A stretch of DNA of 64,000 nucleotides from Marsupella aquatica (taxonomy: Eukaryota; Plantae; Marchantiophyta): positions 17,844,754 to 17,908,753 of the forward strand of contig OZ316896.1 in assembly GCA_973895155.1 (NCBI GenBank), given 5' to 3'. Each line of letters opens with the position of its first letter. The stretch's first letter is position 1. The notes below the pieces were generated by a model. It saw only the letters and a list, made by a program, of their open reading frames with translations. It ran no database searches and was not told the DNA's origin. Positions 1,546 through 47,483 of this stretch are shown here, in pieces. The position numbers were made by a program, and so were the translations under genes.

Positions 1546-4500
1546 ATGGGTCAGGGGGGCTCTTCTAGTCTCACACAATCTGCACAGCCCTGCAATACTA
1601 ATATTCAATTCAAGCAGGTACTATCTTTCCTTGAAACTTTTTTATTTTAATCAGGTACTATCTTTGATCAGTACTTCTTTGGAAATACCCGTTTTGTTTT
1701 GAGATGGCTACTTGCGACAATATGCTACCGAACAATCGATCTCCATCATTACTATTTTGAATTGATCTATCCGTAAGTGTTCTGTTTCTGTGCTGTATCC
1801 AATTTGAGCTCTGAACAGGAATTTTGTATGCTTACTGTACGTTGGCGTGCTTGGGTTTTACAGCTTAATGAATCTCTCTTTGAACTCCACAAACCGAGAG
1901 GGCAACCTAGTATCGTGATCTTATTCTTTCACGGCTTTCAGCATGGAAACTATGAAATGCCCATTTATCAACATGGAAAACTGAGGATGGATCATCCACA
2001 TGGCTCCAGACTTGGCTGGTTGAAGACGACCAGTACCCCGACGCTCACACCCTTTCTGTTGCGTGTAATGCCAGCTTGATGAAAAGCAAGCAAGGAGGAA
2101 GCTTTGACCTATACATCATTGGAGAAAATATTTTGTCAGACTTGCTACAAGCAGATGTCGGGCAACAGCCACTCTGTCCCATAGTATTGGTAGGACACAG
2201 TTTTGGGGGCCTAGTGCTGAAGGAATTGTGTATTCAAGCAAATAAGAGGGGAAGCAGGGGTAGCTCTAAGCACAAAACATTTCTGGAAAATGTAAAGGGA
2301 GTCTTTTTCTATTCCACTCCTCATCACGGGATTTCAAGAGAGATTTCTGAGTATTTTTTGAGCAGAATAAATCAACCGTTATTGGAATATGTAGAAATTC
2401 TTAGCACATCCGCAGCAAGGTTGCATGAAGACTTTGAGATGCTTCGGAAGCAGTGGGCTTGGAAGACGGCAGGAATAGGAGAAGGTTCTGGCACCGAATT
2501 GGTAGGGACATTCTCCTTAGCTTGAGCAATCATATGTAATGGAAATGTATTATTTTTGTCACAATGCTTATGGCGAAATTTCCGACTGCTAAACCAAAGA
2601 AGTGATCAGCAGATACTAGTCATGCTAAAACATTTCTCGACCGTTTTCTGAGTATGTTACTTCAATTCGTCTTATACTAGAATACAATGTGCTGTACGAA
2701 TTTGGTCATTGTTAAGTTCAATTGTATGGTTGCAATCCGGTTCCGAAGGTATTTACAGAAGTGGCATCTTCGAGATTCGATAAAGAATGGATCCTTCGAA
2801 GGATATGATAGATACTTGAGTGGATCGTCACTTGGTTGTGTGTGTGCAGAGCACGTCTAATACAAAGATAGTCGTACCAGAGGGATCGTCAAGATATGGT
2901 GACGCTTTTGTTATCGCGCCAAAGGCTGATCATATATCAATCTGTAGGCCAATATCAAAAATCTCAACCACATTCAACTCCTTGTCCACCTTCCTACATG
3001 GAGTTTCCAGTACTTGGAAGGTGAAGTCAAAATCTTGCTTCTATATCTTGGCATATTTATTGCACAAGATCATGGTGTGGATGGCATATTTATTGCACAA
3101 GATCATGGTGTGGAGGATTTTAGAGTGTTATAATGTGGACCGGTACTTATTTAATTTTCCGTTGCCTTATTGTGGTACAGAGACCAGTCCGTCCACAGAA
3201 CCATCAATCTTTGCCTAAGTTAAGGATTGGTATTGATAATGTCATGAAGGAACTCAAACAGCAGCTTGAGACGGTCACTAGTTTGGGCTTGGCAGGCATG
3301 GGAGGGATTGGAAAGACCACCATGGCCAAGGCGTTATTCAATGATATGGAGCATCTTTATGAGTACACCTGTTTCGTTGGGGATGTGAAGAATTTTCCAC
3401 AGGAGGTTGAGAATATCGTCTTAAAGGAAATGCATTGTATGGGAAGGAGACTAGCAAAGAAGCATGGTGGGTTAGAGTTCTTGGAGGGGAAACAATTATT
3501 GTTGGTACTGGATGATGTTGCTGCAAAAAAACACACTGCAATATTGTCTACCTTGATTCGTGACATTGGTGTCCATGTAGATAGTCGCTTTGTTGTAACA
3601 TCGAGAGATTGCGAACTTCTAGATCAATGCTTGGAGGCAGTGCACAACATGCCCTTTCTAAGCCAAGGAGACGCGAGGAAACTTTTCTTGGCCCATGCTT
3701 TCAGGCAAGAAGCTTCTCCGTTATTTGAGGTACACATAGACATTGTTGTGAAAAAGTGTGGCGGGCTGGCTTTGACTCTGGAAGTCATAGGGGAGCATCT
3801 GTATAAAAAACCTCTGGCTATATGGAAGGAAGCTGTTACTATACTGGAGAGGGCAGATGCTGTGCGCGGATTTGATGAAAAATTGTGGAGTAAGCTTCAG
3901 ATAAGTTTTGATGGTTTGGATCTTGAGGAGAAACACGTGTTCTTGGATTGTGCGACAGTATTCTATTTGCAACCTCTAGATAGGGCAAAGGTAGCATGGA
4001 GCGTCACCACAAATGGGCTTCAAGAAACACTGTGGCAACATCTCGTTGACTTATCGTTGGTCTGCGAAGTTCCTTGGGGAGGTTATCAAAGTTGTGGCAT
4101 GCATGACCAGCTTTTGAGCCTTGGGAGGAAAACTGCATCAAATGAAGTGGAATATGGCCTCAGGATGTGGGATCACCCAAGAAGGGCCTTCCTTTTGTTA
4201 TCATCAGATAATTGCATTGACAATGATGTGAAGGTGAGTTTGAAGAGTATGGTCTTTATCTGACAATTTCCATGCACTGTATCCAAGAATTGCCCAGGGG
4301 TTTGTATCTTGGCCATTTTTGAATGCTGCATGCTGTAGACCAAGGAAGGTCTCCCATGCTGTTGAATTTTCTCAAGACGTCACTGATATTGAGGAATATT
4401 CCACTTTGATCATGGACAGGGCTACCTGTAGCAATTGGGTTTTGAAACTAAGAATGACTTGTGAGTTGAGATTTGTAGGACATTGCGGCTATCAATGTGG

Positions 4501-7426
4501 ATGGACGAGGACAAGGACATTTAAGTAATGACAAGGTTTGTTGGTGGCATTTTGAAAAAGTTATTAAGACAAGATTTCTATAGATGAATCCTTAGAACGA
4601 AATGGATACTTGTGATTTCCTTTTTGATAGGAAGGTACTTAATGAAGAGCCCATTTGGTGTGAATGTATAAATCCTTGTTTTATTGGAATTGTTTTATGA
4701 GAGAGTTCTAGTCTTAGCCACAAACTGAAATGGTTTTTCTCAAACTGAATACTTTTAGAAATGTGTGGACTCATGAGGTTCTGTCAGTAGTATTAGTGCT
4801 TGTTTTTGAATTTTTTTGAAGAAAGTTTCTATGCAAATCTTTTCTTTCACGACCTGCTTTCTTCATTCAATCCAATTTTTGTCAAAAATCAGCCATAGGT
4901 CATGCCTGGTTAAGTAAGTTTGCGGATAGGTTCATTTTGAAAACGTTTTGTTAAAACTGCACGAAAACAGCTATGAGCTTTGCAAAATATCTATTGTGAC
5001 CAATGTTAGAAAGTTTGTGCAAACCGGGAGAGAGATATCGAATGGTAATTCTGTGTTGTCTGGTTTTAATTTTCTTTAGTTTAACTACATTCTAAGTCTA
5101 GGAAATCACCTGTATGCTAGAGGCAATTTGCTGGAGCAGATGCAACTTCAGAAGGTCAGAATGTTTAAAACATGTTTCATAGCTGGTCAGCTGTAACTCT
5201 TAACCTTGAATTTTTCTACTTTGTTCAGGAAAGCGTCACTCCCGTTAATACTGGGGACACCAAAAACAGACCTCTACCAGAAAACTCAACAGCAGAGACT
5301 TCCACCAGGGTCGTCCACAAGTATATACGTTGTGACAAGTGTTCAATGGAACCCATAAAAGGCCCAAGATTCAAGTCTATGGTACAATATGACTATGATT
5401 TGTGTGTCGGATGTTTCGAGAAGGGCGGTCACAGATATGACCAGTATGTTCGTATTGATCTACCTACTGTAAGTAACCGCAAGCGACTGATAGACCTCTT
5501 GAAAGAATTAAAGACATTTTTAATTCATCTGCTCACACACAACTTTTACTATGGAAGGTTTGGCTGGACGCAAACACAGCATTCCCGTTGGAATATTAGA
5601 GTGTATTGAAACAGAGTGCATGATCCAGCTTCTGGAACACATGCCATAAGTGAGCTAGATGTAGATGAACAAATGTTGTAGAAAGTATACAAGTCAGTAA
5701 AGTGATTTAGTCAAAAGAGGTTGAAGGAAGATCAGATAGCTCTAGCACAAACATATCAGACCTCTGACATGCCTGCACTGGATGTTTTGAAATGAATCTG
5801 CGTACAATGGTGGAAAGTTTGATCCATAGTAGCCCATAGTAACCTTTGCTACTGTAGCGTGCTCTTCCGAGACATCTGGAGTGTTGAGGCTGTCCTACTG
5901 TCCCAAGGATATATTACTGAAGAGGAGATGAAAGTGAGTACATTAAGAAACAAATTCTAAGGCGCTTGTAGAGGACTGAGCATAGGAATATTTTCTATTG
6001 GATTATTTTGATTATATGGGGATGAAATAAAAATTGACTTTTGAGTTGGGATTTGTAGGATCATCGGGCTATTTATGAGGGCGGAGGAGCACATGTACAA
6101 TCACATTCTAATGAGGTTTGTTTGATTCCTTGTCTTGACGAAGGAAAAACCCTGTGGCATGATGAGGTTTTGGTGAGATTTGGAAAAATTATTGTGGAAA
6201 AGCACTCTAACCCAGACCTTAGTATAAATGAGTATATAGAACTAGATGTGTATTTGAGTTTTTCTTCTCAGACGGTCCAACATGAAGAGCTACAGTAGTT
6301 TGGTGCAAATGGTTAAAACCTCTTCCTTTAAGCTAAAACTAATAATAAAATCTTCTGAAGAGATGGAACTGATCAGGATAATGAAAGTGTTTTCTTGGAA
6401 TTTCTGGAAATTATTTGTGGATTTATAGTATGACGGAATGCTAAAAAGCTTGTACTGTCGGAGGACATATCTGTAGTTTTGAGGTTGTCCACGTGTCTCC
6501 CAAAGGTACACTCTAAACAAAGTCTTAGAGGATAGATTATTTTCTATTCTATAGTTTCAAATCTGATTTTTCAAGGCAATCTAAGACGGTAGTAGAGGAA
6601 CAAGTACAAGCAAATTCGCACTGAACCATCATTAGAATAAATTCAAAGCTGTGGCCTTCATTACTTAAGCTGACAGTAGTCAAGCCCGTTGCAGACTAGA
6701 AGAGAAACTGACCTGATGTTTGGTGCCGTCAATGGTATTTGGTAGGACTTTCAAACCCTTGAAGGAAGCACATTGTGCAAAATGCGAAATCTGAGATATT
6801 TGCAGATGGCCAACTTGGCCATTGATCAAAGTCATGGTGCAACACTGCCGTCGACACTCGTCGTCCTTAAAATGGTTCGGGTGCAGTTTTCTGATTTCCC
6901 TTTCCGCCCAAGCGACCATGAGCGGATGGCCTTTCTGCACATGTCGGATTGTCCTGAACTTCGTACCCTTCCCACTACTTTTGGCCGACTCTCATCCCTT
7001 CAAGTGTTACATATTTGGAGTGCTCCTCATTTGAAGACCTTGCCTGACTCGCTTGGGAGTTTGCAAAAGCTGGCAGCTCTATGGCTGGTGGATTGTGAGA
7101 ATCTAGCGGAGTTACCGCAAACATTTGGCCAACTGGGAGCTTTGGAAACCGTAGACATTTTTCACTGCGATTCTCTATCAGCCTTGCCAAAGTCGTTTGG
7201 ATATTTACCAAATCTCAAAACTCTGGCTATTTTGGGCTGTCGTCGTCTTCACAACCTGCCCGATACATTCCTGGAGCTTCAAGGATTGGAGACGCTAGTC
7301 CTAGATAGGACATATTTGCAGAGCATTCCCAAATTCGAGAATCTTAGGTTATTGAAAGTCCGTGCATCTCAGGAAGCTCCTCATTTCCGAATCGAGTATA
7401 TCCTACGGCCTCGTCGTACAGTTTAG
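1546..7426 (+). pseudogene. HNL copy 1: alpha/beta-hydrolase-NB-ARC-ZZ-LRR immune receptor with a 1-nt frameshift in exon 2 (pseudogene or assembly error)
   Basis: Predicted phase-0 exons: 1546-1617 (MGQGGSSS..FKQ), 1864-2501 (FFHG, GHSFGG nucleophile elbow, YSTPH), 2850-3020 (ADHISICRP), 3181-4233 (P-loop GMGGIGKTT, kinase-2 LLVLDDV, SRFVVTSR, GGLALTL, MHD), 4479-4535, 5080-5154, 5229-5468 (ZZ), possibly 6059-6115, and 6746-7426 (LRRs LPTTFGRL/LPDSLGSL/LPQTFGQL). TATGAAATG at ~1951-1959 has one A fewer than the paralogs (TATGAAAATG). Confidence 0.88.
5229..5468 (+). CDS. ZZ-type zinc-finger exon (NBR1-like) of HNL copy 1
   Basis: ttgttcag|GAA acceptor and ACT|gtaagt donor, 240 nt, phase 0/0. 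Encodes HKYIRCDKCSMEPIKGPRFKSMVQYDYDLCVGCF..YVRIDLP, which has the CxxC..GPRFKS..DYDLCxxC pattern of plant NBR1 ZZ domains. Confidence 0.85.
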
Positions 7427-7429
7427 AAC

Positions 7430-8400
7430 GAAACTCGCGAGGCTGAGGAGGAAACTGGTGATGAAGAAAGTTGGCTTCTCTTGCAGACAAATACTTGTCA
7501 AATGGCCATTTCTCTACAGTCGATTGACTCAAGGGGGGAGGGTAATCATCGGCAAGTAATCTCGACGAGAGAACATGACTCTGTCTAGTCTTACACGGAG
7601 AACTGGCAAGTCCCACTCGGATTGGGAAGTCTCACAACTGAAACACCTGCGAGAGAGAACCGTCTGGTCTCTGGAGTATGGTGACAATGTATCGACTCCT
7701 TCCTAGACTGTATATTGGTCAGTGGATCTAGACATGGGAGATGCAGCACAGTAGAGTTGGAATTGTCGCGGAGCAGTGTACAGCTACATCCTGATTGCGC
7801 GTGATCCCCTGAATCCATCGGCTAGGGTACGATTTATATGGAGAGATACGTCCAGATAAATGTGCAATCTCGCCATACTCAACCTACCTGATACATTTCT
7901 GTACCACCAGAGACTCGCCGCCCAGGCCTAGTAAGCACACATTTGCAGAGTATTCTTGACTTGGAGAATTTTCCGCTATTGAATGATCGCTGGTTATCTC
8001 GGGCTGACGAAAGTGGAGGAGAATGTAGCTCTTGCAGGCTGTGAATAGTCGAACAGCCATTTCTCTGTAACATCTCCCAATCCATCGCGATCTGAGGGGG
8101 GAGGGGCATCATCTGCAAGTAATCTTCGAGCAATATACATCACTCTGGCGAGTCCAAAGATTGGAACTTCTGGAATGTGTTCGGAACAGATTGATTATGT
8201 CCTCTGCGAACCCCAAATTCTTGAAAGATTGGCCTCTCTGAGTCAACTGGTTATTCCTATCTTGACCCTGGTGTGATCCATGTGGTTAGGAAATTAGTCT
8301 CACCCGGATCGGAAACTAAACAACTGAAACGCCTGCAAGTGAAATACGGTTGGTCATGGAGTAAGGCGATCCAGACAAGGGACATGAAGCAGAGCAAAAT
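7430..8400 (+). pseudogene. Decayed LRR repeats downstream of the copy 1 stop codon
   Basis: Broken LRR-like peptides on + strand: SQLKHLR (~7630), IPESIG (~7805), CNLAILNLPDTF (~7863), LQSILDLENF (~7942). Homologous segments follow copies 2 and 3. Confidence 0.6.
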
Positions 8401-10137
8401 TTGCCTTTCCCAGGAGCAGTGCACAGGTGCGTTTTGATCCCCGATCTCAGCCTGAATGAGTTTTGCCGTTCAGTAGCGCTTGACTCTACTTCGTAATTCT
8501 TTTTTCTAAATATGATAACGTTTGTGTTGTGCTTCACACTATATCATCAGGACACATACCTCGGCAAATTAAGGCTGCAACGGATGCACAGTTTCCATGA
8601 TCGATCATAAGCAGAACCAAAAGTTACCCCCAAGATTCATTTCAAAATATTTAATGGATGCACGTTGCAGTTCTTAGCACATAAACTCGGCAGACTACTC
8701 ATACTTTGTATTGGTAGCAGCCTAGGTCGGTAATAGAAGGTGGATCTTGAGTTCTGATTATTGACTTTATATACAAATGGGAATATGGTGGTTGAAAGTG
8801 CTTAAGACAAACTTTCCATCTAGACTTCGGTGCGATCAGGTCAAATGATCATTAAAAATTTTGGAATGTTTTCCAGAAGGTTGCTTCGTAGGGGTTACTA
8901 ACACAACGTAGATCGAAATGAAAGTAGTGATTACTCCCGAGCAGTTGCTCCGAACTCTGACCGCTGGGTTGAGAAAACATAAAACATTATTGCTGGATAA
9001 TGATACATGTTAGTATCCATTGGAGTGGAATGTGGTATTAATGCTGACTACGTATACTCCCAGGTATACGAAGTGCAGATATAAGCGATGGAGACGGCTT
9101 CTGATGAGAATGTTTACCTCAATTGCTGTGGATTTAGCATCAGACAATTTTGACTCGGCTGCTCAATGAACATTGTCTGCTTCACACTCAGAAGGCCCAT
9201 ATTTGGAGCAAAAAGCCGTTCAGTCAGCTTGGATACTCTCGGACTGCACCTCTTTCCACTTGTGCCCCGACAAGTCACTGAAATCTGCAGCCTAGAATTC
9301 TCCAATCAACGCAGCTCGCAGGGGATGGTCATCAGAATACCTGTGCATGCAAGCTTCCCCCAGTATGAGGAGAAAGAACTGTGGAATTAACTCAAGCTCT
9401 AGCATGTGCTGTTTTGCGCTAAGGGTCGCAACACTTAACTAATTTCGATTACTGCTGTCAGAGGAGGCCCTAAGTACTGAAGTTTTAGCCAGAATATTCT
9501 GAAATCCTCTCGAATATGCGTTTTCATTGTGGAAGGTATTGTGTACTTTCGTGACTACTTCAATGCAGGGAAGATTCTCGAACAGGCAAGCTCTGCATTG
9601 GTTGTGAGGGTGAAGCGCTTTAGAACTTGGAAGTGTATGATTTCGCTACACCTCCACTTCACCACCAGCTGTTGAAAGGAGCACATCATGAGCTCCACTG
9701 ACTGATAATGATACCGAGGAAATTGGTGACATCTGTAGTGAGCAATTGTAGGATTAAATGTTTTTAATACCATACCCTAAGGGAAGGCAGCTGATGTAAG
9801 ATTGAATTCCCTCCCCATGTGGAAAGCTGAAGAGGACTTATTGATGGCTGTAAATTACTCAGGACTGTACATGTTATTTCTGAGACTTGGATGTCACAAA
9901 GCCTTCGAAGGATTTTGGTTTCAGAGTTTACTCCGGGTTGTGACGATGGACGATCACAAAGTTACCATTATTCAACTGAAATTTAGGAGTAACATCAATA
10001 TTACTGAGGAATCATGTTGTGGTATTGAATAACTTTTCGAGTTAACCAGACTTTTTACTGTTGTATACCAATCAAGTGCGGTTTGCAAGCTTTCAAAGAA
10101 ACTGCCTGTTGTTTGCTGCTTTGATGCGATTTGGTAG

Positions 10138-10741
10138 GTCTGATTTCAAGGAAGCACATTGTATAAAATGCGAAAACTGAGATATTGGGAGATCATGGAT
10201 CATTGATCAAAGTCACGGTGTAACACTGCTGTCGACACTCGTCGCCCCTGAGATGTCAACGGTGTTTTTCTCTGATTCCCTTTCAGCCCAAGGGATCACG
10301 AGAGGATGGCCGTTCTGAAAAAGTTGTTATGTCGAGGACTTCACACCCTCCCCGCTTCTTTTGGCCAACTCTCATTCACTCGGGTTATGCATTGACTGGT
10401 ATCCTTTGAAGAGATTGCCTGACTCTGCTGGGAGTTCACCAAAACTGACTTATCTGACTAGCATTGTTGCGTTGCAGTGGTTCAGCTGAGTTACCTAATT
10501 AAGTCATCTGGCCAATTCGTAGCTTTAGAAAGATTGGAAAGTTGATACAGCATTGCTGTATCAACTTTCCCAAAGTCATTTGGATGTTTATCAAGGCTTT
10601 GATATCTGCTTATGAGAGGCTGTTGTAGTCTTCACGACGTGCCAGATACATTCCTACAACTTCAAGGACTGGAGCGCCTTTACCTATAGTCAAATATTTG
10701 CAGATCGTGAGAATACCAGAATTGGAGAATTTAAGATCATA
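10138..10741 (+). pseudogene. Degenerate HNL LRR exon
   Basis: ttggtag acceptor then ggaagcacattgtataaaatgcgaaaactgagatat..., colinear with the LRR exon 6746-7350 through ..ttggagaatttaagatc, with many indels and stops. Confidence 0.8.
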
Positions 10742-12045
10742 GGGCCTATACAAAATATTCAGAAAAATACAACCTATGACAGGTTGAATAATTTATGCAT
10801 AATAAATTTCCCAGAGTTTGTCCTAAAAGTAGAGAAAAATATAAATCCTATGGCTATTGCCCAAACGAGTCAGAGTGGTCGGCGCTGTTAGCACACAAGT
10901 ACAGCAACTTACTCTCTGAAATCGGACTATTTTGATTGAATCTCTCGTCAATTAGACAACTTCGATTCAATCTCTGCCACTTAAATCCGACACGGTCCAT
11001 TCAATCTCTCCCACGTACTTCATTCAAACAGCTTCAATTCAATCTCTGCCTCGTCATTCAGACAGCTCCAAGCCAACGGTTCAATTTATTCCTCTTGCAA
11101 GTGAAATCTAGCGTTTACCACACAAAAAGGTCTGCCTGTGACACTCTGCACACTTTCTTGCTGGTCAAGCAGAAGTAAGTGTTATTACCGTCACAGGAGA
11201 ACTGTAGTTTGTGGGTCTGCAAAGGCTGACCCTTCCAGACGTCTATTATTCTACATGTAAATTTGATACAAAAGAAATTGTGACTGTTAGATTTAGATAT
11301 AGCATATTCATCCTGGAACATGAAAAGTTATTTTGTCCTCTAGCAAAAAGTTTAAGTTTTTTAGTGAAATACAGGTGATCTAATTCTTTTGTGACAAATA
11401 TAAATAGGACATTGATTAGGAAGCATGACATTGAAAAGTTGTGCACATAAGGTACAAGAATAAAAGTACACATGTAAAGAAAAATAATAATGTACAGGAA
11501 AAATTTAAGTCTATGGTATTGGGTTCTACACATACTATACACCAATGAAGATACTTATGTACTTATCTTAGCTAATGACACTCAAATGAATTAAAACCAT
11601 AAATTTAGGACACAAAACTATGAGTAGAACTTAAAGACATGAGGAGTGCACTTAAATAGATCATTTCTTCTTCACTCATCTGAATAAGGGCTAGACCTTC
11701 CGTGAGCTGGTGGATGATCAAAAGTATAGCAAGGATTGAAAAATTTAGAGGGGTGCCAGATTAAATTCAAAATCTAAAATATACAAGGGATGCACCTTGG
11801 TAAGATACATTGAATAAAATACACAAGAAAAGAAGTTTGAATAAGACAAAATACTAGAAGATGGATTCACCATATTATAATTGATTGTGGAGAGAAAATC
11901 TGGTCCTCCACCCCACTACTCTCATAATATTGTGGAAAACATCTGCTTGGACAATAATTACACATGAAAACAGCATGGGAGCTCTTTCAAACACCCTAGA
12001 CATTGGGTTATAGATGGTACTATGCCCAAGTATCGTCACTCTATC

Positions 12046-21979: not shown

Positions 21980-24900
21980 ATGGCTCAAAGGGCCTCTTCT
22001 AGTCGCACCAATAACACAATTACTCAGGTATCTTACGGCACTGACCTCGACCTGAACCTGTTTGGAAAATGCCCGTTCCGTTTAGAGATTGATACTTTGG
22101 ACAGTATGCAATCTGAAGATCCATCTCAATGATCATGAGTATTTTAGTTTTTGGAGTTTTTAGGTTTTATCCAATCTATACAGCTAATTTCTATGCCTAC
22201 GGTACGTTGGCGTGCTTGGGTTTTACAGCTTAATGAATCTCTCTTTGAACTTTACAAACCGAAAGGCCGTGCTAGCATGGTGGTCTTGTTTTTTCACGGC
22301 TTTCAGCATGGAAATTATGAAAATGCCTATTTGTCAACATGGACAACTGACGATGGACGAGAGGATGGATCATCCACATGGCTCCAGACTTGGTTGGTTG
22401 ATGACGACCAGTACCCCGATGCTCACATCCTTTCTGTTGAGTATAATGCGAGCTTGATGAAAAGTAAGCAAGAAGGAAGCTTTGACCTCTACGTCATAGG
22501 GGAAAATATTATTTCTGATTTGTTAGAGGCAAATATTGCGCAAGATCCCCACTGTCCGATAGTATTGGTAGGACACAGTTTTGGGGGCCTTGTAGTGAAG
22601 GAACTGTGTGTTCAAGCACATAAGAGAGGCAGCATGGGTAGCTCCAAGCACAAAACCTTTCTGGAAAATATCAAGGGGGCATTTTTCTACTCCACCCCTC
22701 ATCATGGGATTTCAGGAGAAATTTCCGAGTATTTTGTGAGCAAAACAAATGAACACTTGTTGAAATATGTGAAAGTCCTGAGTACTTCTGCAGCGAGATT
22801 GCATGAAGATTTTGAAAAGCTACGAAAGCAGTGCGCTTGGCAGACGGCAGGAGTAGGAGAAGGTTTACCTACCCATCTGGTACGGGGCATTCACTCTCAA
22901 TCTTATGAAATGAAAATATATTGAAGATTTCTGACAGCTTCCAATTATTTCTAAAGCAAATCAATGATCAGATATTACTTATAGACGGTATAACGTTTTC
23001 TCGATTGTTGACCAATTTGTTTCAGTTCATTCCATCGAACTGATAGAAGAAGGCAATGCGCAGTAACAGTTTCATTTCTATGAATATCACCTAGTTTAGT
23101 ACTACTAAGTCATCTAAGTAGCCCGCATATAAGGAAGTTGATCAAGAGTAATTTGTGTGAAGGATATTGTAGATGCTTCATTCATTGGACCGTCACTTGC
23201 TTGTTTGCTTGTATGTGCGCAGAGCACATTTAAAACAGCGGTAATTGTACCGGAGGGATCGTCAAGATATGGAGACACCTTTGTTATCGTGCCAGAGGCT
23301 GATCACATATCAATCTGTCGGCCAAAATCAAAAATCTCAAGAACATTCAAGTCCTTGTCCAGCTTCTTGCGTGGAGTTTCTATTACTTGGAAGGTGAAGT
23401 CAAATTGTCGCTCATATTTTTGGTGTACTTAATACAGAAGGTAGTGCTATGTCGCTTTGTGTCCACCGGTGCTTATTTTAGATTTGCTTTGTATTCATTG
23501 TTGGATTACAGAGATCAGTCAGGCCTCAGAACCGTCAATCTTTACCCAAATCAACGATTGGTATTGATAATGTCATGAAAGAACTGAAACACCAGCTTGA
23601 GACGGTCACTAGTTTGGGCTTGACGGGTATGGGAGGGATTGGAAAGACCACCATGGCCAAGGCGTTATTCAATGATATCGAGCATCTTTACGAGTACACC
23701 TGTTTCGTTGGGGAGGTGAAGAATTACAGTGAGCACGAGGTTGAGGGTATGGTTTTAAGGAACATGCATCATATGGGAAGGAGGTTCACAGAGAAGGATG
23801 GTGGGTTAGAAATCTTGGAGGGGAAACAGTTACTGTTGGTTCTCGATGATGTGGCCTCGGAAAAACACATTACGCTACTGTCAACCTTGATTGGTGACAT
23901 TGGTATCCATGAAGATAGTCGCTTTGTGGTAACATCCAGAGATAGGGAACTTCTAGATCAATACTTGGAGGCAGTGCACCCTATGACGTTTCTAAGCGAA
24001 GGAGATTCTAGTAAACTTTTCTTGTCCCATGCTGTTAGGGGAGAAGCTTCTCCTTCCTTTGAGGAACACGTAGACATTATTGTGAAAAAGTGCGGTGGGC
24101 TGGCTTTGACACTAGAAGTCATCGGGAAGCACCTGTATAAAAAGAAGGTGGCGATTTGGAGGGAAGCGATTTCTATACTGGACAGGGCAGAGACTGTGCG
24201 TGGATTTGATGAGAAGTTGTGGAGTAAGCTTCGGATAAGTTTTGATGGTTTAGATCTCGAGGAAAAACAGATGTTCCTTGATTGTGCAACAGTGTTCCAT
24301 CGGGACTCTCTAGATACGGCAAAGGCAGCATGGAGCATCACCACAAACGGGCTTGAAGAGACACTGTGGCAACATCTTCTCGACTTATCGTTGGTCTGGG
24401 AAATCGAGGAAAGTTATGTAATTTGTGGTATGCATGAGCAGCTTTTGAGCCTTGGGAGGAAGATAGCATCAAATGAAGTGGAACATGGCGTCAGGATGTG
24501 GCATGCCCCACGGAGGAATTTCTGCTTGTTGTCAGCTACGAATTGCACTGAAAATGATGTGAAGGTGAGTTTGAAGAGTATGGTCTTGATCTGAACTTCC
24601 ATGCACCGCACCCACGAATTGCCTAGCGGTTTGCATGTTGGCCATTATTGAATGCTGCATGGTGTAGACCAAGGAAGGTCTCCGATGTTGAACTTTCTGA
24701 ACATATTACTCCTATTGAGGAGTATGCCAGTTTGATCATGTACAGGGATGTTATATGTAGAAACTGGTTTTCGCGAAAAAGCATGACTTGTGAGTCGGCA
24801 TTTGCAGGACATTGTTGCTATCAATGTGTATGGAGGAGGAGTCCTACATTTAAATTATGAGGTTTGTTGGTGGCGTTTTTGCTGAGATTGATATTTCGCA

Positions 24901-27781
24901 TTGTTGATGGCTTTTTCTGGAGAATGGTTTTGCGGATTGTTGGTGGCTTTCTCCGGAGAATGGGTTTTCGCATTGTTGGTGGCTTTGTGAAAAGTTATTG
25001 TGGAAAAGTTATATTGCAAACCTTCTCGAGATGAATGCTTAGAATTAAATGGATAATTGGGGTTACCTTGTTGAAAGGTATTAGATAAAAGCTCACTTGG
25101 TGTGAATGGATAAATCCTTGTTTTTTGAATTTTTTTAAGTAATAGATATGTAAGCATAGATTACAGTAAAAAAAATTCTCTCAAAGTAATTTGATATTTT
25201 TTGAAGGGCATGGACTCTTTACCCCTATCCGTGAACGCATGACTTATGTATATGTTGGTGCCCCTTTTGGAAATTGTTTGAAACCAGTTCTTACATTGAT
25301 TTGGATTCCAAAAATGGTTTCATGCAAATCTTTTCTTTCTTGCTAGTTCTTGCCACTTCTTTCCCCCAAAAAGGAGCCACTGGTCGTGCCTTGGTAAGTA
25401 AGTTGGCAGATATGTCTGGTTTTTAAACATAGACTAGTAATTCAGTTTTTGGTTCCAATCCCCATCAGCCCACATACATTCAATGAATTATCTACATGCT
25501 AGTCAGGGGTAATTTACTGGAGCAGCTGCAACTCAGAGGGTGAGAATACTTTAAGTAGGTTCATAGTCAATTTAAAGCTCTTAACCTTGAAACTAACAGC
25601 TTGAATTTCTGTACTGTCATAGCTTTCGACCAAGGCCTTCCACGTGGGTGTTCAGCAAAGAGCGGAATGTTCAATTCCGCCCATAGAGGGCCCGAGATTC
25701 AAGTCTAGGGCACAAGTCGACTTTGACTTGCGTCTCCGGTATTTCGATAAAGGGGGGCAACAAAAAAACGAGTATTTTTGTCTCGATCTACCTTCTGTAA
25801 GTAACCCCAAAGCGAAAAATCTCTTGCAACAATTTAAATGCTTGTTAATCAGCATGCCATCAGGTCACACGAAACTCTTACAGTGGAGGGTTACAGTGGA
25901 GGGTTTTGCAGCTTGGCAGAAATACAACATCCCCATTTTGAATCTTAGATTGTTTTTAAAACAAAACGTGTGCGGAACCTTCAGTAACAAATGTCCTAAG
26001 CTGCTTTCAGTGGAGAATGTATAAAAAGTCAGTAAATCGATGATTAAAACATGTTGAAGGAATATAAGTGAGCACAAGCACAACCAGGTCAGATTTTGAC
26101 ATGTCTGCATTAGATGTTTTGAAATGAATCTTGCAGGTAACTTTTTAAAGAAGATTTGCAACTATAGCAGCCTTTGCTATTATCGTGTGCTTCCCCCATG
26201 CATGTGAAGTTCTGAGGCTGACCTATTCTCGCAAGGATATACTACTAATGAGGAGATGAAAGTGAATACATTAAGAATTAAACGAAGATGGTAGTAGAGG
26301 AGGGAGCAAAAGAATATGTTCTAATGAAATATCTTCATTTTATGGGGATTAACTATAAAACTGACTTTTTACTATGGGATATATAAGAGATATTGGGTTA
26401 TGAATGTGGGAGGAGGAGCAAGTGTCGATCCTATTCTCATGACCCTTGTTCTTTTTTGATGTTGCGACAAAGGAGTTTGCCGTATCATTGGTTTGATGAT
26501 GGGATTTGAAGAGCTTTGTATAGTCTAGATACATAGAGCTAAATGTGTAATTGGGTTATTCTTGTTGAAAAAGAACCCAATTAATATCAAACCCTAAAAA
26601 ATAAAAGATCTGATGAAGAGATGGAAAGTTTCACTCTAACAAAACTGGTTTCTGAAAATTTTGGGAAATGTATGTGGGGCGGACTTATAATTGGCCAAAT
26701 GATAGAAAGTTTGTAATCTGAGGAGATGTGTTTGTAGTTTCGAGGTTGTCCATGTGTAGCCCAAGGATATCTTCTAAAAGAGAAGATGAATGTGATTCCA
26801 TTTAGAAACAAAGTCTAAGGTGGCAGGTTATATCCTATCATTTTTAATATTGTTAATCTGGTTTTCAAGGTGCAGTCTAAGACGGAAGTAGAGGACCACG
26901 TACAAGCAAATTTAAAACTGAATCATGCTCAGGAAATATTAATTCAAAGCTGCAGCCTTCATTACTTACTCTGACAGTAGTTAAGCCAAGTGCAAATTAT
27001 GAGAGAAACTAACCTGTTGTTTGGTGCCGTCGATGCCATTTGGTAGGACTTTCCCACCCTGGAAGCAAGCACATTCTGCAAAATGCGAAATCTTAGATAT
27101 CTGGGGTTGTCCAACTTAACCGTTGATCTAACCCATGGTGCAACACTGCCGTCGACACTCGTCTGCCTTCGGATGTATTGGGTGCAGTTTTCTGATTTTC
27201 CTTTCCGCCCAAGCGACCATGAGCGGATGGCCATTCTGCTGATATGGAATTGTCCTGGACTTCGTGCCCTTCCCACTGCTTTTGGCCGACTCTCATCCCT
27301 TCAAGAGTTACGGATTGCTTGGGCTCCTAATTTGAAGAGCTTGCCTGACTCGCTTGGGAGTTTACGAAGGCTGGTATTCCTAGCGTTGGTAGGATGTCCT
27401 AGTCTAGCGGAGTTACCGCAAACATTTCGCCAACTGGTAGCTTTGGAAAATTTACACATACGTGACTGCGATGCTCTTGAGGCCTTGCCAAAGTCGTTTG
27501 GATGTTTACCGAAACTCAAAACTCTGCGTATCATTGGCTGTCGTCGTCTTCACATCCTGCCCGATACATTCCTGGAGCTTCAAAGATTGGAGTCGCTAAA
27601 ACTAGTCTGGACATATTTGCAGAGCATTCCCAACTTGGAGAATCTTAGGTCATTGAAATATCTCCATGTATCTCAGCATGCTCCTCGTATCGAAATCAGT
27701 AGTCTATCAGATTTGATGCGTTGGAAGGCTGAGCGCGAAGCTCGTGAGGTTGAGGAGGAAACTGGTCATGAAGAAAGTTGA
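21980..27781 (+). CDS. HNL copy 2: alpha/beta-hydrolase-NB-ARC-(degenerate ZZ)-LRR, apparently intact
   Basis: Phase-0 exons: 21980-22027 (MAQRASSS..TQ), 22229-22879 (hydrolase, GHSFGG), 23223-23393 (ADHISICRP), 23512-24564 (NB-ARC, MHE), 24808-24861 (DIVAINV..), optional 25623-25796, and 27047-27781 (LRR plus acidic tail). All of these exons are open with GT-AG borders. Confidence 0.88.
25623..25796 (+). CDS. Degenerate ZZ exon of HNL copy 2
   Basis: tgtcatag| acceptor and |gtaagt donor, 174 nt, open frame. FHVGVQQRAECSIPPIEGPRFKSRAQVDFDLRLRYFDKGG..DLPS aligns to the ZZ exon but has RAEC and RLRY in place of the two CxxC pairs. Confidence 0.6.
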
Positions 27782-30367: not shown

Positions 30368-31782
30368 GGAGGAAGCTTTCACCTCTACGTTATAGGGGAA
30401 AATATCATTTCACAGCCCTGCAATACCAATATTCAATTCAAGCAGGTACTATCTTTCCTTGAAACTTTTTTATTTTAATCAGGTACTATCTTTGATCAGT
30501 ACTTCTTTGGAAATACCCGTTTTGTTTTGAGGTACTTGCGACAATATGCTGCCGGACAATCGATCTCCATCATCAGTATTTGAATTGATCTATCCGGAAG
30601 TGTTCTGATTTTGTGCTGTATCCAATTTGAGCTCTGTACAGAAATTTTGTATGCTTACAGTACGTTGGCGTGCTTCGGTTTTACAGCTTAATGAATCTCT
30701 CTTTGAACTCCACAAACCGAGAGGGCAACCTAGTCTCGTGGTCTTATTCTTTCACGACTTTCAGCATGGAAGCTATGAAAATGCCCATTTATCAACATGG
30801 AAAACTGAGGATGGATCATCCACATGGCTCCAGACTTGGCTGGTTGAAGACGACCAGTACCCCGACGCTCACATCCTTTCTGTTGCGTATAATGCTAGCT
30901 TGATGAAAAGCCAGCAAGGAGGAAGTTTGACCTATACATCATTGGAGAAAATATTTTGTCAGATTTGCTACAAGCAGATGTCGGGCAACTGCCACTCTGT
31001 CCTATAGTATTGGTAGGACACAGTTTTGGGGGCCTAGTGCTGAAGGAATTGTGTATTCAAGCAAATAAGAGGGGAAGCAGGGGTAGCTCTAAGCACAAAA
31101 CATTTCTGGAAAGTGTAAAGGGGGTCTTTTTCTATTCCACTCCTCATCATGGGATTTCAAGAGAGATTTCTGAGTATTTTTTGAGCAGAATAAATCAACC
31201 GTTATTGGAATATGTAGAAATTCTCAGCACATCCGCAGCAAGATTCCATGAAGACTTTGAGATGCTTCGGAAGCAGTGGGCTTGGAAGACGGCAGGAATA
31301 GGAGAAGGTTCTGGCACCGAATTGGTAGGGACATTCTCCCTAGCTTGAGCAATCATATGTAATGGAAATGTATTATCTTTATCACACTGCTTATGGAGAA
31401 ATCTCCGATTGCTAAAACAAAAAGTGATCAGCAGATACTAGTTATGCTAAAACATTTCTGGACCGTTTGCTGAGTATGTTACTTCAATTCCTGTTATACT
31501 AGAATACAATGTGCTGTACGAATTTGGTCTATGCTCACTGTTAAGTTCAATTGTATGGACAGGTTGTAATCCGGTTCCGAAGTTACTTACAGAAGTGGTA
31601 TCTTCGAGATTCGATAAAGAGTAATTTCTTTGAAGGATATGATAGATACTTGAGTGGATCGTCACTTGGTTGTCTGTGTGCAGAGCACGTCTAATACAAA
31701 GATAGTCGTACCAGAGGGATCGTCAAGGTATGGTGACACTTTTGTTATCGCGCCAAAGGCTGATCATATATCAATCTGTCGG
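30368..31782 (+). pseudogene. HNL copy 4: truncated hydrolase-only relic (copy 1 type)
   Basis: Near-identical to 1583-2948. Lacks the exon 1 start, has a frameshift at ~30925 (ggaagtttg vs ggaagctttg) and an FHG->FHD change, and breaks off after ICR at ~31782. Preceded by a stray 43-bp hydrolase fragment (30368-30410). Confidence 0.85.
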
Positions 31783-32759
31783 CTAATGTTGGCCAATCTG
31801 TCGGTTAATATTAATGTCCCAAATGGTTTTTAATATCATCCAATTTAATATTTAATTTTCCCAAATTTTCATTTTTTGTCCCCAAATTTACATTTAATGA
31901 TGCTTAAATTTTCATTTTTCATCTTCAAAATATATTTACAATTTTCATGCCTAAAACTATGTTTTTAAATCTCCAAATTTCATTATATTCTTTTATCATT
32001 TCAGTTTTAATGATAAAGTGTGTATAGATCTAGATTAATCGTCTCAAAGCTCTGGGTCTCGTTAATCCACACGAGTAGGAAATTCAATTGAAAGTGAGAG
32101 GGTAGGAGACCAGGCAAGAGGGTCAGACACCGGAACCCCCCAGGCAGCACCAGTAGCTCCAAATGAGCACCGGGCCATGAACACAAAATTGCCGATGCTC
32201 GAGGCTTTTCGCAAGTCAGAGGGTGAGCCCTCCAGGGAAGACTATATCACTAAACCACCACCTGAACGTCTCGTAGCAAAACTCCACCTATAATGTCGTT
32301 ACTCTCGCTCGAATTGAGAATGAAATCACTTGTTGTCAATTGAAATCAAATTAAAGTGTACAAACATCTTTCGAGAACCAACGTCAACAAAACTCGCTCG
32401 TTTCTGGTAGATACTTTATAATCTACATGCTGAGAAGAGAACATGGCGACGCACATAAGGTATCTTTCCTCTCGTAGAGAAGTATAAAGAGGGCATCTAA
32501 AAGCGCGCCCCCTCCCCCCCCCCCCCCCCGCCCCTGCTGTGATGTAGGTTCTCTTGTCGGTGACGCAGGTGAAGGCTATCAGTGTAATTGCCTTGAGTAT
32601 CCTCGTAATCGATGCTGAAATCCTGCGCGCAAATTCAATTCAAAGCTCGTGAATCCATTCTGGTTCAAATGGATGTTTGCGACCTTTCAGTAGATCATGC
32701 TAGCAACGACTAAGCGACTACTCCTCAGTCTGCAGTCAAGCACGTACTACCCAACGGCA

Positions 32760-43231: not shown

Positions 43232-43689
43232 TTTCCAATTCTTTTCCCCAAGATTCGTCCACTGACGAGTTCATGGCCTGCCATGCAATGTACCCACATA
43301 CTACAGTACGTGTGTGACGATACAATAATAAAAAATAATTTTGCTTGACATGCACGAAAGTATGCCGACTTGTGGGCAGATTTTCGTTTGTGTGTTGAAA
43401 GGAGTGTTTTGTTTGAAAGAGTAATAAACCTGAATTGATATATTAGTATACAGTGTAAATTGACTCGAGTTGTGTGATTGACGAGGTTGAGATTGAATCG
43501 AACCTGTCCAATTGACGAGAGATTCAGTCTAAGCAGTCTGATGTCGACAAAGAGTGAGTTGCTTTATTTGTTTGCAAACACCACCTACGACTGATAAGTT
43601 ATGTTTGGGCTCTGTAGTAGGCTAGTGTGTGCTCGGTTGACTTGGCCTGGCACCGTGGTCCATGGCCATCCAGGTCAATCTGCTTTCTT

Positions 43690-46600
43690 TCTTTTTTTGC
43701 CTCGAAAAAACCAATTGAATTTCATTCAAAAAGCCAACATACAATGGGGGTGGCCCACAAAGGGGGTCGGCACCCAGGTGGACCCGGAGGTCATTAAGCC
43801 ACACAAGCCGGGGGGGCCGGCACCAGGGAAGAAGCAATCCCAGAATGGGAGCTAAACAAGAAATTTAACAACTGCAGAAGGAGCGGCAAAACCCCCAAAG
43901 ACCGGCCAGTGAACAAGGAACCGGCAGGGTACCCATCAGTGGATCCGTGATAGAGTCGCAAAAAAAAACTATCGGCCTAACCTGCAGCAAAGCTCCCCAA
44001 CCTGAACACATAGGTGATTCATGGCGGGCGTGGGGGAACTGGTGGCACTTGGAGTATCTCCTCGTGGATATCCCACAGCCCAACCCAGGTCCCATAGTTG
44101 ACAGACATGTCATTGAACGCAGCTACAAAAGAGGACTTGCCAGACTGAATTCTGGACTTGTGATTAGACCAATTTCGACGGAGGTACACACTGAGGCGGT
44201 GCCAAGACATCTGAATTACTGTCCTCGCCTTCGATCTAGTAAGTTCGATGCAATGTGAGTTGCGATCCTTCCAAATGTACCAGCAAGTAATGGCCCGTAG
44301 GGTATGCCATAATTTCTCTGGTACATCCCAGAAATCAGGCAGAGGAGCCCCAACAAAAATGTGAGCCGGTTGGAGTTGAATGCTACTTTTGCTGGTGGTT
44401 GCCGCCTTCTGTAGAACGTACTGGACCCATGACCAGACTGATTCTGAGACTGGGCAACTCCATATGCAATGAACCAGGTCTTCGTGCTGATTAAGAGTAC
44501 ATCTAGTGCACCATGTGTTGGGATCTGTCGGTGGAAGAGTCGGTAGGCGCCAGTGATGTGTAGCTGGTATCCTGTAGATTAATTGCCATAAGAAACAATT
44601 CTCATTCGCAACCCTGTAAGGAATCCAAGTATTAGCCCACAACATCTTCAGGTTGGGGGTCCAATTCAGTTGAATTGCCTACTTCCTTACCGCCTTGTGA
44701 GTTGTTGTCTGAGTGGGCCCTGGATCTCCCTGAGATGAGCAGTGTTAGTCTCCAGGAATGGAGTTCCGTCCTTCCATTCATATTGGAGTAGCATAGCCAA
44801 TAGATTGGTTGGTCGCCCAATGCGCAAGTGATGGGGGCCAGTGGTCCTGTGGGATCTGGTCACCACACAATGTAAGGTTGTGTCTGATGGGGGGGCTAAT
44901 GTAGCAATCTTATGCAGGACCCCATTCATGACCTTGAAGGTTCTGACTGGTGTGGAAATGTCACAAAACTGTTGCCACCATGATGTGATGTGATTGCGTT
45001 GTACCTTGAATTCCCAAATGAATAGGGTTCCACAAGGAAGCTTAGCTTCCATGAACACTGGGATCCTCTGCCTAGGGTTCCGGTGGAGTTCGGGTACACT
45101 GACCAAATTCCCAATCAATTTCCTATACGCATGGGCGCAGTTGCCCGGTAGCAACCTGCTTGGACCATCCTCCCACCTTAGGAACACGCCACCAACTCCT
45201 AGCACGTCCTTCATGTGTACAAACCCTGCCCTGGATATCCTTCTTTGAGGGTTTCGCGAACACTTAGCTTGGCTGGGTTGGATATGATTGAGGTGGGGTC
45301 TCCAGAGGGGGAGGTGCAGCCACCCCTCCAAGTGGCCAGGAGCCGTATGTCTGAGATTCTTCTTGATCACATTCCAACCGTTACAGATGTTGCGCCAGAC
45401 CTGTGATCCATCCTTAGGTAGCGTATGGCACTGTGAGACCACCCAGGAGAAGTCCGCAGTTCCCCACTTCTGCTTCGACAGCATCTTGATTTTGTACTGA
45501 AGTATACGCCGTAGCGGGTGGTCTTCCTCGGCTAGGGCCCAAAGAATGAAATTTCCAGTGAGCGCCCGAACCTGTGCAGCAAGGGAGATCAAACCGAGTC
45601 CACCAAATTTCTTTGGTCTAGTTATGGTAGCAAAATTAACCCTGGGCCTAGCCTTCTCATTCTGCCCTGCCCATATGAAGGCGGTAATCTTCTTCTGAAG
45701 GGTATCAATAGTGCGTTGTTGCCCTGCCCATACTGTTAGCATAAACCAGAGAGAACTCACAACAAGGTGATTGACAACGGTGACTCTGGCAGCAAGGGAC
45801 CCTGCACTCTTCCTCATTTTATCTAGCCGCGACTCCAATTTTTCCGAGAGGGAGAGGATCATTTGTTGCTCCGATATGCCTCTAGCAAAGGGGATTCCAA
45901 GGAGCTTGGTGGCAGTAGTCGTATCCTCCCATTGCCAAGGCAGTCATCGAAACTCTATGGGCATCCTTCTAGGAGAAATAAAGGCAGCCTTGGTCTTTTC
46001 CGAAACACAGAACAGGCCTGAAGCCATACCAAACAAATCCAAGATTCTGCAACTTGCTTCAACAAATTCAATTACAGCCTGGATGATCATAGCTAGGTCG
46101 TCGGCAAAGAGATTATGGACGCAGTGTACACCAACCGCTTCAAAAATTACACCCTAGATGCATCCTCTATTGGTCTCCCATAATATCATCCTGCTAAGAG
46201 CGTCGATGGCAATAAGGAATAACAGTGGTGACAGGGGGCATCCTTGGCGAACAGATCTGGCTAGGCTGAAGGGGGCAGTCATTTTACCATTCAGGAGGAT
46301 GGACGAAGTTGCCGAAGCCTGCGTGGCCTGCAAAAATTGGAGAAGTAACCCATCAAAGCCCACCTTCTGTAGCAGCGCCAACAGAAAACTCCACTCCAAC
46401 TTGTCAAATGCTTTAGTCACGTCCAACTTCATGAGGATGAAGTCCATTCCCGTGGATTCCGCCTGGTGTATGGCCTCATTAAGAAGGAGAAGTGAGTGAT
46501 GTATATTCCTCCCTGGGAGGAATCCCTGGGAGGAAAGCAAATTGTTGGGGTGTGATGAATCTTTGGAGAATCGGGGTGAGACGCAATTGAAAAGCCTTGG

Positions 46601-46840
46601 CGCCAATTTTATAAATCACATTGAGCAAAGTAATGGGCCGCTTGTTGGTAAGGAGTCGTTGGTCGTCCTTCTTACACAGGAGGACAATGAGGCCCTTGGT
46701 GAAATCGGGTAAAAAATGGCCCTCCGCAATCCCAAGGAGCAACGCCCTGTGCAAAGTGGTACCAACTGATTGCCAATTGGCCACAAAAAATTCAACGGGA
46801 ACCCCGTCGGGGCCCGGACACTTATTTTTGGCCAAAGCAG
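43690..46840 (-). mobile_element. 5'-truncated, inactivated L1-like LINE (reverse transcriptase plus zf-RVT)
   Basis: Minus-strand peptides KCPGPDG, RPITLLNVIYKI, KLDVTKAFDKLEW, VRQGCPLSPLLF, GGLGL and CTRC..EDLVHCIWSC, with an A-rich tail at ~43690. Frameshifts include a ccctgggagga duplication at ~46510-46535, and there is a stop at 46154-46156. Confidence 0.93.
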
Positions 46841-47483
46841 ATGCAGTTTATTGATGTACTCTATTTGGCCTTTTCCTGTAAAAAGTATGTGTATATTTTC
46901 TTTTCATTTGTGCATTTCCATACTTGGTTGTTAATTGGCCTGGGAAAATGTCAAATTACCAAGAGATTCTCCTACCTGGGTGGGACCATTCTGCCTTGTG
47001 TATATAGACGTGAGACTACAGTATCTAACTGCACCATGTATAAGTGCAATCCTGGGTATGTGGCAGGCCAGCTCTCCTTTCCCACCCTTTCTTTTGTAAA
47101 ATTGCAATTTTCTTGCACTTTTTTACACGTGTTTCCCTAACTGCACTAAACTAAAAAGCACCTAAGTAAAAGATCCCTCTATAATTGTATATATGCAGTT
47201 AGCGATAACCACTACATAGATATTACCCATTGATAAGCACCGTAGGTTTCACATAGTAGTTATGCGGCAAAGTAATGTGCCAAAGAATAGAGGAAGGACA
47301 GCATGGACTGGACACATACAAAACTTTGAATGGCTGGCCAGCAGGAATCGAAGGTGCACATAGCACTGGAAATGTGAGGTGCAGTTGTCGATGACTGCAA
47401 ACTTTTCAGAATTGGCACAATGGCCTAGTGCAGTACACAAAGTCGGCTGTAGATGGTGGCCTGCACTCCCAAGTTGCAAACAT

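Follow-up and report, generated by a model that had tools for sequence, protein, structure and literature searches.

A putative NBR1-type ZZ finger exon in tandem hydrolase-NB-ARC-LRR genes of the liverwort Marsupella aquatica

A 64,000-nucleotide (nt) stretch of the Marsupella aquatica genome (contig OZ316896.1, positions 17,844,754 to 17,908,753; hereafter the window) contains three full-length copies of one gene, and by their predicted domains these genes are liverwort receptors with an alpha/beta-hydrolase, an NB-ARC domain and leucine-rich repeats (LRR), the class known as HNL. In the linker that joins the NB-ARC exon to the LRR exon, after a micro-exon here called A, the tandem genes appear to carry a phase-0 exon encoding a ZZ zinc finger derived from an autophagy receptor of the NBR1/Joka2 type. 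The best reading of the sequence comparisons is that a phase-0 intron slot has taken in a foreign exon, and on balance we lean towards the view that the finger is an integrated bait or sensor of these nucleotide-binding LRR receptors (NLRs).

Results

An earlier note, made from the letters of the window, had described the linker as a set of duplicated symmetric micro-exons around a ZZ domain, open to exon shuffling or alternative splicing. The ZZ assignment was borne out, with a Pfam score of 40.7 bits (cut-off 21.4) for the predicted exon of copy 1. This exon has an AG acceptor and the consensus donor GTAAGT in all three copies; in copy 2 it is 66 nt shorter, in frame and free of stops, and three of its four cysteines are lost. 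Among the indels listed for related contigs (12 of 32 rows are the basis of these counts), two events fall inside the ZZ exon, with net changes of +3 and -3, and eight of the nine rows outside it are not multiples of three. Micro-exon A is in frame in the three copies (57, 54 and 57 nt), and its DIVAL-like start follows the NB-ARC domain in most HNL models of the liverwort Calypogeia fissa. In the structure model of the C. fissa protein P0005 it forms a confident strand (residues 645-649) before a low-confidence insert, and in P0015, which has no ZZ, the A segment aligns to AIEGLLL of Roq1, about 20 residues ahead of the LRYL repeat. From what is known of the structures of Toll/interleukin-1 receptor-NB-ARC-LRR proteins (TNLs), we take A to be the first LRR strand. 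Moreover, the truncated model P0283 reads through directly after RYDE into VWC, as would be expected if a GT donor lay at the same place. This cross-species evidence supports A and ZZ as predicted exons.

The relatives of these genes were considered among the best 120 of 1066 homolog matches. The closest ones with a single NB-ARC domain are C. fissa P0005 (CAM6114803.1), P0006 (CAM6100455.1) and P0007, with 63-66% identity over the NB-ARC exon, and all three have the order NB-ARC end, A-like segment, ZZ or decayed ZZ, LRR. The ZZ family (PF00569) was matched in three of these 120 homologs, all from C. fissa, so that the finger would stand in the frame of an NLR by gene prediction there as well; two more have a decayed finger, and ZZ is listed in none of the 13 Marchantia and Riccia rows. 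The earlier note had asked whether other HNLs carry different domains at this position: the content of the slot does differ (ZZ, decayed ZZ, an acidic insert or nothing), but ZZ is the sole Pfam domain found there among the 120. In P0009, P0013 and P0014 the loop of the slot holds unrelated low-complexity inserts. A search with residues 600-760 of P0005, which has low sensitivity, returned only four C. fissa proteins among 189 candidates. In an NB-ARC tree of 39 rows the three window copies, P0005, P0006, P0007, P0002, P0010 and the truncated P0283 form one clade (support 88), nested in a leafy-liverwort group (98). P0002 and P0010 also share the order of NB-ARC, A-like strand, ZZ or decayed ZZ and LRR, but differ from the window copies in a longer, unrelated-looking spacer before the ZZ.

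The ZZ was likely captured from an NBR1/Joka2-type autophagy receptor, judging by its closest sequences. A search among named proteins gave a single match, the JOKA2-like P0271 (61%), and the top non-NLR blastp matches among the fetched proteins were P0271, P0141, P0127 and P0143, each of which has PB1, ZZ and an NBR1-type UBA domain; three of them also have the NBR1 Ig/FW domain, and P0141 is itself a C. fissa protein. Donors of this kind would give the finger an origin in a host gene. Where the second CxxC would stand, the finger has RFKS..DYDLC as in plant NBR1, and the combination of a Pfam score above the cut-off, retained first-site cysteines and a replaced second-site CxxC is found in copies 1 and 3 and is absent from copy 2. 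When the ZZ exon was searched against cluster representatives, multi-ZZ proteins dominated the matches, and these were used as a pool of sequences only. In a tree of 35 ZZ rows the second ZZ of P0141 and P0272 and one long branch join all seven NLR fingers in a single group (86 in the Shimodaira-Hasegawa-like approximate likelihood ratio test), and a single origin of the NLR fingers was not rejected (p = 0.43, approximately unbiased test). This tree omitted the ZZ rows of 15 non-NLR proteins, long branches among them (P0121, P0124, P0126, P0131, P0133, P0161, P0164, P0168, P0206, P0207, P0210, P0217, P0259, P0264 and P0267). The grouping with the second ZZ of liverwort NBR1-like proteins, over 59 columns, is suggestive, not proof.

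Two observations on other ZZ proteins are recorded here. The C. fissa proteins P0141 and P0272 are NBR1-like, with PB1, two ZZ and UBA, and P0141 is without a Pfam match to NBR1 Ig/FW, a p62-like layout in a liverwort. In P0210, an alpha-kinase is joined to two plant-type ZZ fingers. An origin of the 75-nt candidate exon of the linker, or of the spacer at the N-terminal side of the ZZ, from NBR1 or from P0002/P0010 was also considered and rejected, as the best match was equalled by 11 of 200 shuffles.

The symmetry of the linker exons had been regarded as a special property of this region. The predicted introns of all three copies are in phase 0 throughout, and the internal exons are multiples of three except the frameshifted one, as far as predicted junctions tell. 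As Xue et al. (2012, PMC3352924) report for HNLs, the introns that lie inside the hydrolase and to either side of the nucleotide-binding site (NBS) are in phase 0, and so is the NBS-LRR intron in HNLs, in the kinase-containing class (PNLs) and in TNLs. The window genes have the same pattern in the hydrolase and before and after the NBS, by predicted junctions, so that a linker-specific symmetry is ruled out. Phase-0 symmetry is the background of the family: it explains how a foreign exon could land in the slot, and says nothing in favor of skipping. The related claim that any subset of these exons keeps the frame is true of the frame, but skipping A would delete the first LRR strand. As a separate observation, the HNL models P0001, P0002, P0003, P0004, P0008, P0011 and P0012 have duplicated NB-ARC or hydrolase-NB-ARC blocks, and the first block of P0002 stops right after the A-like segment, which indicates that internal duplications close to this junction are a recurring event in the HNL family.

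All four pieces singled out by the earlier note (A, the 75-nt piece, ZZ and the second micro-exon, B; Table 1) have AG/GT borders, lengths of 57, 75, 240 and 57 nt, that is, multiples of three, and a stop-free frame 0, and their counterparts in copy 3 lie where they had been placed. However, this conservation is weak evidence for exons and was ruled out as proof of them, since most of the linker, its introns as well, is 82-98% alike in copies 1 and 3; indeed, the 75-nt piece differs at 3/75 positions between them and the intron that follows at 3/74. The bare exon criteria (YAG, GT, a multiple of three, no stop, 30-300 nt) yield no more than chance: 91 pieces of the linker pass, where 100 shuffles average 66 and the reverse strand has 96. 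Of the 91, 35 also count as "conserved in copy 3", because of the same overall identity. A stricter pyrimidine-tract filter left three candidates (shuffle mean 5.9), and of the named pieces the ZZ exon and the 75-nt piece alone passed it; as it misses A, it must be a poor model of M. aquatica acceptors.

The paralogy of A and B is well founded: 4443-4542 and 6023-6122 are 73% identical over 101 nt (E 5e-8; z = 16 against 300 shuffles), and the ZZ exon lies between these two copies of a duplicated micro-exon. Between B and A of copies 1 and 3 the 40-nt acceptor flank matches at 31-32/40 positions and the donor at 8-9/10, against 30-34/57 in the exon body, and the farther intron is near baseline (mean 18.6/40). 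This pattern fits selection on splicing or short gene conversion. The body of B has a ratio of nonsynonymous to synonymous differences per site (pN/pS) of 0.89 (12/57 differences between copies 1 and 3) and no longer encodes the hydrophobic strand, and in copy 2 the donor and one base are lost. Whether B is used in genes of the copy-1/3 type seems to us evenly balanced. The use of the 75-nt piece as an exon is doubtful: in copy 2 it is 71 nt long with a stop, and its acceptor is lost by a 96-nt skip in the read runs X3/X4 and reads GG in the loose end of X1/X2. Neither this piece nor B has a counterpart in the gene models of P0005, P0006 and P0007, and both are broken in copy 2, the sole unbroken reading frame of the window.

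The piece at 5859-5933 had been compared to the end of the NB-ARC exon, and the likeness stands at the protein level, where it outscored all other GT-ended linker pieces (143 in total) against 11 exon ends in a test designed after the piece was named, but it is weak in the DNA (z = 1.9). An in-phase AG is missing from this piece in copy 1, copies 2 and 3 lack any AG at the corresponding site, and in related contigs it has a 1-nt deletion or is missing as a whole. A third repeat is present as proposed, with 6447-6517 matching 5856-5921 (z = 4.7 in copy 1, 11.6 in copy 3 and 13.8 in copy 2), but the part first pointed to (~6577-6620) does not match A significantly (z = -1) and lacks a GT donor. 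Local duplications have likely left the 75-nt piece, 5859-5933 and the third repeat behind as intronic debris. Taken by splice sites and symmetric phase, A and ZZ are complete in 3/3 copies and B and the 75-nt piece in 2/3, and 5859-5933 is without a shared acceptor. The read runs X1-X4 cover the introns as in DNA, with no GT-AG joint, and so are uninformative on expression.

For p62, three aspartates of the ZZ (Asp129, Asp147 and Asp149) are described as binding the N-termini of proteins, and Asn132 as reading the side chain (PMC6098011, in the part available). Copies 1 and 3 retain equivalents of all three aspartates; the equivalent of Asn132 varies, being Ser in copy 1, Arg in copy 3, Ser in P0005 and Gln in P0002. 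The ZZ and LRR exons have pN/pS values of 0.76-1.07, against 0.37-0.41 for the NB-ARC exon, and zinc ligands have been lost in frame in three separate genes (copy 2, P0006 and P0010). In the structure model of P0005 the predicted local distance difference test score (pLDDT) is under 50 for most of the insert, and a single-sequence model of the ZZ alone is not ZZ-like (pLDDT 66, predicted template modeling score 0.43). The fold search matched the NLRs RPP1, NRC and Roq1, as expected.

Over the gene cluster, Pfam matches were obtained for DUF676/alpha-beta-hydrolase, NB-ARC, ZZ and LRR. The hydrolase domain scores 29.6 bits in copy 3 and 20.8 bits in copy 1 (DUF676, cut-off 20.3), PF00931 was matched in copy 1, LRR families were matched in every copy, and GHSFGG as well as the P-loop, kinase-2 and MHD motifs are present in 3/3. 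The copy 2 model, in the order exon 1 (E1), E2, E3, NB-ARC, A, ZZ, LRR, is stop-free and aligns end to end with P0005, P0006 and P0007 (59-62%). As assembled, copy 1 has a 1-nt frameshift in the hydrolase exon and an early stop in the LRR exon, and copy 3 has a TAA at 38319-38317 within exon 3. Copy 3 is a mosaic: its 5' end into the NB-ARC is 95-98% like copy 2 and most of its linker resembles copy 1, with the switch at about copy-1 position 3700-4150. As copy 3 is a recombinant, the ZZ cassette moves between paralogs by conversion or crossover. An adjacent head-to-head helper NLR is common in NLRs with an integrated domain, though not universal; the window contains none, as copies 1 and 2 are in tandem, copies 2 and 3 are convergent and the ZZ exon is present in all three. 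Copy 1, P0005, P0006 and P0007 begin with MGQG(G/A)S (1546-1566 in copy 1), which fits the N-myristoylation motif MGxxxS; copies 2 and 3 start with MAQR and have lost it. Further features of the window are included in Table 1.

Table 1. Features of the window (positions of the 64,000-nt stretch)
Feature	Position	Strand	Copy 3 counterpart	Remarks
Copy 1	1546-7426	+		HNL gene; intact ZZ; frameshifted hydrolase exon
Predicted exon 1	1546..1617	+		24 codons; MGQGGSS start; phase-0 donor; tblastn to P0005 residues 1-25
Predicted hydrolase exon	1864..2501	+		638 nt; DUF676; 1-nt frameshift near 1955
Predicted exon 3	2850..3020	+		171 nt; symmetric phase 0
NB-ARC exon	3181..4233	+		P-loop GMGGIGKT; MHD
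Micro-exon A	4479..4535	+	36828-36772	57 nt; predicted first LRR beta-strand; likely constitutive
75-nt candidate exon	5080..5154	+	36172-36098	Good splice sites in copies 1 and 3; doubtful
Predicted ZZ exon	5229..5468	+	36023-35784	240 nt; low-complexity linker and NBR1-type 4-Cys ZZ finger
Decayed duplicate of NB-ARC exon end	5859..5933	+		Conserved acceptor absent; likely intronic
Micro-exon B, candidate	6059..6115	+	35204-35148	57 nt; A duplicate; splice signals retained by copies 1 and 3 but not by copy 2
Third decayed repeat unit	6447..6620	+		Alignable part 6447-6517; no donor
LRR exon	6746..7426	+		Stop at 7424, ~16-17 codons before the stops of copies 2 and 3
LRR 3'-end short duplications	7880-8369; ~33361-33281	+; -		Downstream of copies 1 and 3
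Decayed extra LRR-exon copy	10097-10704 (approximate)	+		Downstream of copy 1
Copy 2	21980-27781	+		Sole unbroken model (961 aa); decayed in-frame ZZ exon
Copy 2 A	24808-24861	+		54 nt
Copy 2 ZZ exon	25623-25796	+		174 nt; decayed; in frame; 3/4 Cys lost
Truncated fourth copy	30411-31787 (approximate)	+		Hydrolase only, exon 1 end to exon 3; 94% identical to copy 1; own frameshift near 30926
Copy 3	39669-33765	-		Mosaic gene; intact ZZ, A and B; TAA in exon 3
LINE-like retroelement	44019-46847	-		Frameshifted; RVT_1 matches 46157-46615 and 46482-46847
Short open reading frames	52200-54934			No confident Pfam family; weak Ish1 match 52509-52862; possibly remains of a DNA element
Dispersed ~130-nt repeat family	87-219; 10872-11068; 43467-43592; 47581-47712			TTCAATCTCT-type units

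Discussion

With the predicted HNL introns in phase 0 throughout, the intron after A could take in a symmetric exon with no shift of the frame. A single capture may have occurred in an HNL clade of leafy liverworts, before M. aquatica and C. fissa split. The usual mRNA would then be E1-E2-E3-NB-ARC-A-ZZ-LRR, in whose product the ZZ would loop out from the first LRR turn, and in genes of the copy-1/3 type B may add a polar spacer of 19 residues after it. The acidic pocket is kept, and the binding of a microbial protein or of a cleaved host protein to it would free the NB-ARC from auto-inhibition. The sequence pattern is that of a finger diverging as fast as the LRR, with zinc ligands lost in frame in three genes and linkers swapped by recombination. 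In the accessible part of the literature NBR1 is bound or subverted by XopL, PexRD54, SDE4405 and viral proteins (PMC13164681); nothing on pathogen targeting of the ZZ was found in the literature searched. We favor the bait or sensor over, in this order, a splicing switch, a passenger and a turnover handle, and the functional steps of all of them are conjectural.

However, several points weigh against a captured finger kept as a bait or sensor. Both window copies with an intact ZZ have a lesion upstream of it, the unbroken copy 2 is the one with the decayed finger, and intact ZZ-HNL reading frames were found in C. fissa models only; these models are predictions, as are all junctions used here. 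The ZZ exon taken alone gives pN/pS values of 0.76-0.83, with no clear purifying signal. In a quick tree of 64 ZZ rows, mostly without resolution, the NLR fingers fall in three places within a mostly plant-type ZZ group of 35 rows, and the 35-row tree of 59 columns was chosen after that result. One type of related contig skips 5423-5571, which would delete the ZZ donor, and the splice signals of B are better kept than its coding part, which fits exon use. Furthermore, a citrus study, as far as its accessible text goes, maps effector binding to the UBA of NBR1 and not to the ZZ (PMC13315814).

It is less likely that the linker is an alternatively spliced cassette giving isoforms with and without ZZ (A-LRR, A-ZZ-LRR, A-ZZ-B-LRR, A-B-LRR), possibly under regulation by infection. 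All subsets keep the frame, relatives without ZZ show a viable A-LRR layout, the acceptor flank and donor of B match those of A better than the exon body does, and a 292-nt deletion in related contigs ends 30 nt before the B acceptor; also, in wheat and barley integrated domains are included or excluded by splicing, according to the available part of PMC7422411. Nevertheless, a phase shared by the whole family predicts nothing on skipping, the ZZ donor is the consensus GTAAGT in 3/3 copies, neither B nor the 75-nt piece is viable in copy 2, and the decayed ZZ exons of copy 2, P0006 and P0010 retain frame and splice sites, as if always included. The fuller scenario in which the captured NBR1 ZZ on the first LRR turn senses N-termini, or traps effectors aimed at autophagy, and is spliced in and out by the duplicated micro-exons appears improbable; if true, it would indicate that pathogens target the NBR1 ZZ and that the slot is a natural integration site in mid-LRR. 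Slightly less probable again is that the ZZ exon is a tolerated passenger, captured once and decaying in an insertion-tolerant loop, with copies 1 and 3 as pseudogenes. The lesions in these two copies, the three independent losses of zinc ligands, the ZZ pN/pS near 0.8 and the low-complexity inserts at the same loop of P0009, P0013 and P0014 are what a passenger would leave. On the other hand, four cysteines and three acidic residues persist in copies 1 and 3, P0002 and P0005 despite an NB-ARC identity of ~50-66%, and the LRR exon also has a pN/pS near 1, so that a high ratio is no proof of lost function. The least probable of these alternatives is a functional finger with a regulatory task, in which binding of host cargo or N-degrons would set the turnover, location or oligomer state of the receptor. 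Its pocket residues are kept, and the ZZ domains of p62 and of fission-yeast Nbr1 select cargo (PMC9582228 and PMC6098011, in the parts available), but fast divergence at the Asn132 position and repeated loss would fit recognition better than housekeeping.

With the bait or sensor as the preferred reading, the family has some wider interest. Integrated domains flag host proteins under pathogen attack, and an NBR1-derived ZZ in a liverwort NLR would suggest that selective autophagy, notably the ZZ surface, is contested in non-flowering plants. The genes are a natural series at one exon-bounded site, with the finger intact, decayed or absent, so that direct tests of the sensor function, of what the hydrolase does and of any splicing switch are possible. 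The loop of the first LRR turn is also marked as a place that tolerates a whole domain.

Known examples of NLRs that carry integrated domains (NLR-IDs) include RRS1-WRKY and Pik-HMA. The window genes share with the NLR-IDs surveyed by Sarris et al. (2016, PMC4759884) the predicted fusion of a host domain, fast divergence and turnover among paralogs; the term "ZZ type" was absent from the searched supplementary files of that study (11/15). NLR-IDs, including those in hydrolase NLRs (Hyd-NLRs), were already known (PMC11218826, as far as its accessible text goes), and our literature search, which covered neither most subscription papers nor the NLR-ID supplement of that article, found no report of a ZZ-HNL. 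A near precedent is a single sentence in the available text of Andolfo et al. (2019, PMC7145615), in which PF00569 occurs with NB-domain proteins of a bryophyte, as in the window, but in NLR-like proteins of the moss Physcomitrella patens and not in liverwort HNLs, and with position, donor and class not stated there. In comparison with plant NBR1/Joka2, the window ZZ shares up to 61% identity, the four first-site cysteines, Ser for the second-site CxxC and the acidic pocket, but its protein has no PB1, FW, ATG8-interacting motif or UBA, and the finger is embedded in an NLR. From the HNL or Hyd-NLR class as described in the parts available of Xue et al. (2012, PMC3352924) and Chia et al. (2024, PMC11218826), the window genes keep the alpha/beta-hydrolase, NB-ARC, LRR and phase-0 introns, and they add the ZZ exon and the duplicated micro-exons after the NB-ARC. 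The integrations of Chia et al. are N- or C-terminal in that text, whereas the window ZZ would lie inside the first LRR turn. The finding of note here is a finger of NBR1 type whose predicted place, bounded by exon borders, is the first LRR turn; the alternative-splicing slot is added to it as a hypothesis.

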